Below, in pieces: positions 1-403 of a stretch of DNA of 403 nucleotides (its first letter is position 1; every line of letters starts with the position of its first letter). A program made the position numbers and the translations under genes. The notes beneath the pieces are model-generated. The model was given only the letters and a program-made list of their open reading frames with translations. It was not told the DNA's origin and searched no databases. Source of the stretch: a phage; the sequence record BH153126.1; one strand, given 5' to 3'.

Positions 1-72
1 ATCGAATCCCAGCGTGTCGAAATCGCATCCAGTATCATGATGCAAGGTGAAGAAGAAAAAAGACCGCGATGA
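1..72 (+). CDS. 3' end of an upstream protein-coding gene (5' end outside the window), read exactly as written in frame 1; product unidentified
   Basis: Frame 1 is open from base 1 to TGA 70-72, with a second in-frame TGA at 73-75, giving IESQRVEIASSIMMQGEEEKRPR*. Codons 1-60 are typical preferred enterobacterial codons (atc, gaa, tcc, cag, cgt, gtc, gca, ggt). The last three sense codons include two rare Arg codons (AGA, CGA), which suggests the true frame is lost near 58-63. Frames 2 and 3 are closed at 38-40 and 48-50. Confidence 0.4.
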   Translation: MESQRVEIASSIMMQGEEEKRPR

Positions 73-139
73 TGAAGATATGGAAGATGAGGACGAAGAT
101 CGCAAAGACGATAAAAAAGACAAAGAAGACGACGAATAA
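1..139 (+). pseudogene. Alternative reading of the same gene: frame 1 (1-60) joined to frame 2 (62-139) by a one-base register change in the A6 run; C-terminal K/D/E-rich charged tail; frameshifted gene, sequencing error, or recoding
   Basis: Frame 2 (41-136) reads CKVKKKKDRDDEDMEDEDEDRKDDKKDKEDDE, followed by tandem stops TAA TAG (137-142). In this tract the T residues sit at codon position 2 or 3 in frame 2, mostly as the wobble base of GAT, which is a coding-frame signature. Frame 2 is closed upstream by TGA 38-40 and has no plausible start with an RBS, so it is best explained as the displaced 3' end of the frame 1 gene. One extra A in the run at 56-61 would give ...IMMQGEEEKKDRDDEDMEDEDEDRKDDKKDKEDDE**. 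Confidence 0.35.
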
Positions 140-140
140 T

Positions 141-146
141 AGGAAG
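141..146 (+). promoter_or_regulatory. Shine-Dalgarno / ribosome-binding site for the ATG at 152
   Basis: AGGAAG at 141-146, overlapping the second stop codon (TAG 140-142) of the upstream tail. The AGGA core ends 7 nt before ATG 152-154, within the usual spacing range. Confidence 0.5.
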
Positions 147-151
147 CCAAC

Positions 152-235
152 ATGATTAAAGATTTTACTCCTAAAGCTGACTTAGAAACTTTTCTGCCGG
201 AAGCACAGGAAATTGGACATGTTGGCTATGTTTGA
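152..235 (+). CDS. Small ORF as written (27 codons), probably the 5' portion of a longer frame-disrupted gene; product unidentified
   Basis: ATG 152 with a well-spaced SD; frame 2 reads MIKDFTPKADLETFLPEAQEIGHVGYV then TGA 233-235. The start lies 9 nt after the upstream tandem stops, an operon-like arrangement. At 84 nt it is too short to be confident as a stand-alone gene. Confidence 0.35.
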   Translation: MIKDFTPKADLETFLPEAQEIGHVGYV

Positions 236-395
236 GTCAGAAGAACTATTGAAAATCGTTGAAGGTATCTCCGAGGATGAGCCGAACTGGCGGTAGCAAT
301 GCTGTCTATCATCGACGGAATTATCGTAAATGAAGCAATGGTTAACATGTAACGCACGCGGGGAAGTTGCACGTAAGAAGATCGCAAACCCGTGA
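152..395 (+). pseudogene. Candidate small acidic protein gene (about 80 codons if restored) disrupted by about three frame changes; could equally be assembly indels
   Basis: Four consecutive open segments with protein-like composition and preferred codons: frame 2 at 152-232 (MIKDFTPKADLETFLPEAQEIGHVGYV); frame 3 at 234-293 (ESEELLKIVEGISEDEPNWR, stop TAG 294-296); frame 2 at 281-349 (AELAVAMLSIIDGIIVNEAMVNM, stop TAA 350-352); frame 3 at 354-392 (ARGEVARKKIANP, stop TGA 393-395). Each segment begins where the previous one ends. The individual segments are only 13-27 codons, so none is statistically compelling alone. Confidence 0.28.
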
Positions 396-403
396 GCGCA
401 TGC

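Follow-up and report, generated by a model that had tools for sequence, protein, structure and literature searches.

In bacteriophage T4, gp68 goes into the prohead core and is later degraded by gp21 (PMC9958956, PMC9026906). The capsid shell of T4 assembles around this core, and degradation of gp68 by the gp21 protease follows. According to a review of the T4 head, gp68, IPI-III, and Alt are dispensable for assembly; gp67 is absent from that list (PMC9958956). Coliphage RB49 carries an ortholog of gp68 with 135 residues (NP_891729/AAQ15396), encoded by gene 68 at NC_005066 91278-91685. Because both sequence and gene order are conserved, the RB49 ortholog is expected, by analogy, to act like T4 gp68. 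The order of the head-gene cluster, 20 (portal)-67-68-21 (protease)-22, is complete in RB49 and in 11 other annotated relatives.

The subject of this study is a stretch of phage DNA of 403 nucleotides, referred to as the window. An earlier note, made from the letters of the window, had described a gene that appeared to be split across four frame segments between positions 152 and 395. The comparison with related phages presented here indicates that this split gene is the already known gene 68 of phage RB49, present here as a copy of low accuracy, and that the split is almost certainly an artefact.

Results

The Window Is a Copy of RB49 Genes 67 and 68

A blastn search with the window matched 110 phage records. 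The top match is RB49, with 97.1% identity over positions 1-400, and the close matches come almost exclusively from Krischvirus, the RB49-like T4-type coliphages. When 5,426 complete E. coli genomes were searched with the window for a prophage origin, no matches were obtained. The window reproduces a segment of coliphage RB49 (genus Krischvirus, family Straboviridae), NC_005066 91128-91537. Genes 67 and 68 are annotated at the matched stretch in RB49 and its relatives, and the two genes lie between the portal gene 20 and the prohead protease gene 21. Gene 67 ends within the window; a 12-nt spacer with a ribosome-binding site separates it from gene 68, of which the first ~250 nt are included. 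Gene 67 thus lies directly upstream of gene 68, as in the cluster, and gene 21 lies beyond the window. The features are as follows.

1-139, plus strand: 3' end of gene 67, encoding a prohead core protein and internal-peptide precursor; it includes the acidic tail and ends with the stop codon TAA at 137-139
141-146, plus strand: Shine-Dalgarno-like AGGAAG, read from the sequence; 5 nt lie between it and the ATG of gene 68
152-403, plus strand: 5' two-thirds of gene 68, encoding a prohead core/head scaffolding protein; the ATG is at 152, and the gene runs off the window end

Gene 67 is closed by a tandem stop, TAA TAG (137-139 and 140-142), and AGGAAG comes next, before the ATG of gene 68. The spacer between the two genes shows no variation among the aligned relatives. 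A search of either strand of the window for RNA families (Rfam) gave a single sub-threshold chance match, which scored 13.9 bits where the gathering score is 60, and neither promoter-like nor terminator-like sites turned up on either strand.

Both gene products belong to described families. RB49 gp67 matches the Pfam model GP67 (PF17634) with an E value of 2e-12 and 47.8 bits, above the cut-off of 27, and it matches phrog_1064 at 4.5e-23. The gp68 ortholog of RB49 matches phrog_1049, annotated "head scaffolding protein," at 2.3e-57, and a Pfam search with RB49 gp68 returned no model. With gp68 as the query, tblastn matched 1416 phage records. In all 40 of the matches listed, which are spread down the ranking and include T4 at 56.6% identity, gp68 is encoded in-frame as a single piece.

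Against the window itself, RB49 gp68 gives tblastn matches in frame 2 (E value 8e-20) and frame 3 (3e-17). Identity is perfect inside each true-frame stretch. In the same way, the frame 1 match of gp67 to the window covers residues 32-51, and its frame 2 match covers residues 48-76.

The Window Differs from RB49 by Ten Events

The window was aligned with RB49, KMB43, kaaroe, and W115 and was then compared with RB49 column by column. Exactly ten events separate the two sequences: seven deletion events, one insertion, and two swaps of adjacent bases. When the ten edits are reversed, the resulting 410-base string is an exact substring of RB49, NC_005066 91128-91537. Besides the two swaps, there is no ordinary substitution in the 410-base comparison. 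The ten events are listed below.

42-43, plus strand: adjacent-base swap in gene 67, GC where RB49 and all relatives have CG; ATC GAA (I E) becomes ATG CAA (M Q)
56-61, plus strand: extra A in gene 67, A6 where RB49 and all relatives have A5; +1 frameshift
210-212, plus strand: deletion of two bases, A3 where all relatives have A5; the true first break in gene 68, frame 2 to 3
284, plus strand: deletion of one base, G where all relatives have GG (CCGGAA becomes CCGAA); frame 3 to 2
324-325, plus strand: adjacent-base swap in gene 68, TC where the relatives have CT; ACT (T) becomes ATC (I)
344-345, plus strand: deletion of one base, A2 where the relatives have A3; frame 2 to 1
351-352, plus strand: deletion of one base, A2 where the relatives have A3; frame 1 to 3
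378-379, plus strand: deletion of one base, A2 where the relatives have A3; frame 3 to 2; missed in the earlier note
386-388, plus strand: deletion of one base, A3 where the relatives have A4; frame 2 to 1; missed in the earlier note
400, plus strand: deletion of one base, A where the relatives have AA; frame 1 to 3

The frame of gene 67 in this copy is 1 until about position 60 and 2 from there on. Gene 67 is therefore damaged as well as gene 68, so the error process is not specific to gene 68.

The acidic tail of gene 67, a stretch rich in GAA, GAC, and GAT at about 75-105 of the window, shows a natural length polymorphism among Krischviruses that is in-frame (3n). Relative to RB49 and the window, the tail is longer by 3 nt in KMB43 and by 9 nt in kaaroe, and W115 has an insertion of 3 nt and a deletion of 6 nt.

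A Ser-rich antisense ORF of 167 amino acids is present in intact RB49 on the minus strand (1404-1907 of the RB49 stretch examined), where it spans genes 67 and 68. The GAA/GAT-rich sense codons probably produce it as a shadow ORF. A remnant of 53 amino acids occurs on the minus strand of the window at 226-387, shortened by the same indels. An exact-protein look-up in a gene collection with the products of this 53-amino acid ORF and of a 30-amino acid GTG ORF found neither on record.

The True Reading Frame of Gene 68

Gene 68 in this copy consists of eight frame stretches with the seven deletion events, which remove eight bases in total, between them. The true reading is as follows.

152-211, plus strand: frame 2, MIKDFTPKADLETFLPEAQE
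213-284, plus strand: frame 3, LDMLAMFESEELLKIVEGISEDEP
287-343, plus strand: frame 2, LAVAMLSIIDGI[I]VNEAMV
346-348, plus strand: frame 1, H
351-377, plus strand: frame 3, NARGEVARK
380-388, plus strand: frame 2, DRK
391-399, plus strand: frame 1, RER
402 onward, plus strand: frame 3, continuing past the window end
393-395, plus strand: TGA, not a stop in the true frame, which here reads CGT GAG CGC (R E R)

The open frames recorded in the earlier note are indeed present: frame 2 at 152-235, frame 3 closed by the stop at 294-296, frame 2 open from 281 and closed by the stop at 350-352, and frame 3 open from 330 and closed by the stop at 393-395. One real gene broken by indels, as had been proposed, is borne out by the homology to gp68, but three single-base changes do not account for it. 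The first junction had been placed at the T3 run at 231-233, whereas the true break is the A run at 210-212, about 20 nt upstream, where 14 of 14 related loci read the intact GGAAAAATTGG. The residues EIGHVGYV of the earlier reconstruction are therefore out of frame, and the correct residues are EKLDMLAMF. A break around position 350 does exist, but it comprises two deletions 7 nt apart and not one. The reconstructed end KKIANP* has to be replaced by KKDRKTRERN..., which runs on past the window. The last ~16 nt, which had been read as IANP* with the stop at 393-395, are out of frame, because three more deletions follow position 377. Instead of a protein of about 80 amino acids, the relatives have one of 135 amino acids, 49 residues of which lie beyond the window end in RB49.

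Gene 68 Is Intact in Related Phages

The gene was compared across 14 related loci, which comprise 12 phage records (RB49 counted twice) and two IMG/VR contigs. In all 14, gene 68 is uninterrupted, 408 nt long, and free of indels. Eighteen sites vary among them: 15 are third codon positions, and just three alter an amino acid, which shows that gene 68 is under purifying selection. The alignment with the orthologous locus finds an intact gene in every relative and substitutions mainly at third codon positions. A single uninterrupted frame of about 135-141 codons is a property of these loci that the window, with its seven breaks, lacks; we attribute this lack to sequence error and not to the gene being of another kind.

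The pattern of change in the window is the opposite of that in nature. The 14 relatives have 18 substitutions and no indels in gene 68, whereas the window has eight indel events and no plain substitution. The view of the earlier note that the frame was broken recently or by sequence error, and not through ancient decay, is supported.

The Indels Are Confined to Homopolymers

All eight indel events are situated in runs of at least two identical bases, although such runs make up 45% of the RB49 segment (p about 0.002). Runs of A hold seven of the eight (p about 4e-4). The homopolymer is shortened in seven of the events and lengthened in one, the insertion in gene 67. Overall, the ten events in 403 bases amount to an error rate of about 2.5%, concentrated in homopolymers.

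Strings specific to the window were used to look for a second copy of the junctions. Four window-specific junction strings gave no matches in IMG/VR, two of them also gave none in JGI metagenomes, and one of them none in GTDB genomes; the intact form of the first junction string is present in IMG/VR.

Discussion

Gene 68 is not naturally split. Taken together, these results make it highly probable that the ten differences are errors in the sequence record, not mutations of a living phage. An artefactual origin is the most likely explanation for a set of differences that is restricted to homopolymer lengths and base order while the gene is intact in all relatives. The two exact swaps of neighboring bases would be characteristic of a misread or mistyped base order and not of mutation spectra. 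On the other side, modern sequencers do not typically produce clean swaps of adjacent bases, which counts against an artefact. Candidate sources of the errors would include homopolymer under-calling or base calling by a sequencer, old manual gel reading, transcription, simulated noise, and deliberate corruption. Parts of the RB49 head-gene region were reportedly sequenced in the 1990s by Monod and co-workers, and a tie between the window and that sequencing would be speculation. A literature search for an earlier error-prone RB49 sequence found a citation of Monod et al. 1997 in PMC2839356 and nothing tying the window to that work.

Other readings of the split gene were considered. Tiling of 152-395 by open frames is by itself no better than chance: in 1000 dinucleotide shuffles of this region, three frame switches were the commonest minimum, and three or fewer sufficed in 73%. 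The segments could on this evidence be chance open frames in non-coding DNA with no gene at all, since shuffled sequence typically allows the same tiling. However, every stretch is identical to RB49 gp68 (tblastn E values of 8e-20 and 3e-17), the RB49 ortholog matches phrog_1049 at the value given above, and the relatives vary chiefly at third codon positions. The identity to gp68 rules out chance open frames even though the tiling alone is not significant, and we give this reading practically no credence. Programmed ribosomal frameshifting, which would join the segments, for example by a +1 shift at GTT-TGA-G (231-236), is scarcely more credible and is refuted by the alignment. What speaks for it is a superficial likeness of GTT-TGA-G to sites of the XUU-UGA-N type, nothing more. 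One continuous ORF runs through these bases in 14 of 14 relatives, with ATG TTT GAG (M F E) as the in-frame codons, and the TGA at 233-235 is therefore just an out-of-frame triplet, in keeping with the preference of the earlier note for an indel over a programmed site. The proposed site lies about 20 nt downstream of the actual break, which was made by the two-base deletion at 210-212, and its bases are read as TTT GAG. Moreover, seven frame changes would be needed in 250 nt, some of them only 1-3 codons apart. A programmed site would be expected to have its two-frame arrangement kept in relatives, whereas a single frame is found in all 14 and the breaks are private to the window.

A more serious alternative, although still an unlikely one, is that the deletions are real and that the source of the window is an RB49-like genome, defective or in decay, in which genes 67 and 68 were inactivated by repeated homopolymer slippage. 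The molecule could, for example, be a non-viable member of a population, a cloned fragment, or part of a lineage with a mutator polymerase. The location of all eight indel events in homopolymers, where replication slippage acts, is consistent with such an origin. In addition, gp68 is reported to be non-essential for T4 head assembly (PMC9958956), and a phage without gp68 could therefore in principle survive. Against real deletions stands the combination of eight slippage events and two swaps within 403 bases that lack any ordinary substitution compared with RB49, the reverse of what the 14 relatives show. A genuine pseudogene would be recognized by relaxed substitution and by disabling changes shared by independent sequences, but the window has no plain substitutions and its junctions are private; no second public copy of any tested junction emerged from the IMG/VR, JGI metagenome, and GTDB scans. 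Gene 67 is damaged too, and in T4 this gene is essential, as is known from the older genetics literature. In the T4 head review (PMC9958956), gp67 is not among the dispensable core proteins. A uniform error process, which explains damage to both genes within 403 bases, fits better than selective gene loss, which does not. It is very unlikely, and less likely than real deletions in general, that the window represents an RB49 variant or subpopulation that lost gp67 and gp68 in a burst of homopolymer slippage, caused for instance by a mutator DNA polymerase, and that is still propagating. If this were the case, components of the scaffold core would be dispensable in Krischvirus.

Errors in the record thus remain the preferred explanation, and the use of the finding is that of a quality-control warning on the source sequence only; no new biology follows from it. 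With about 2.5% error in the window, calls of genes, frameshifts, or pseudogenes made on the same source should be distrusted. The comparison also illustrates that frame junctions inferred from the positions of stops alone can be off by tens of bases and that compensating indels in close succession escape notice when only stops are read.

With respect to known systems, positions 1-139 of the window correspond to the 3' end, including the acidic tail, of RB49 gene 67 and of T4 gp67 (PF17634), and they differ from RB49 gene 67 in the extra A at 56-61 and the CG to GC swap at 42-43. The upstream gene 67 and the 12-nt spacer are common to the window and RB49. Compared with RB49 gene 68, the window copy lacks eight bases through seven deletions, contains one base swap that turns T into I, and is without the last ~150 nt; reversal of the ten edits brings the 410 shared bases to 100% identity with RB49. 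The RB49 ortholog is placed in the T4-type family by its match to phrog_1049 and by its 56.6% identity to T4 gp68. Compared with record errors in homopolymer length and base order, the window shows the same two kinds of change: its indels are all changes of homopolymer length, and the rest are two swaps of neighboring bases.
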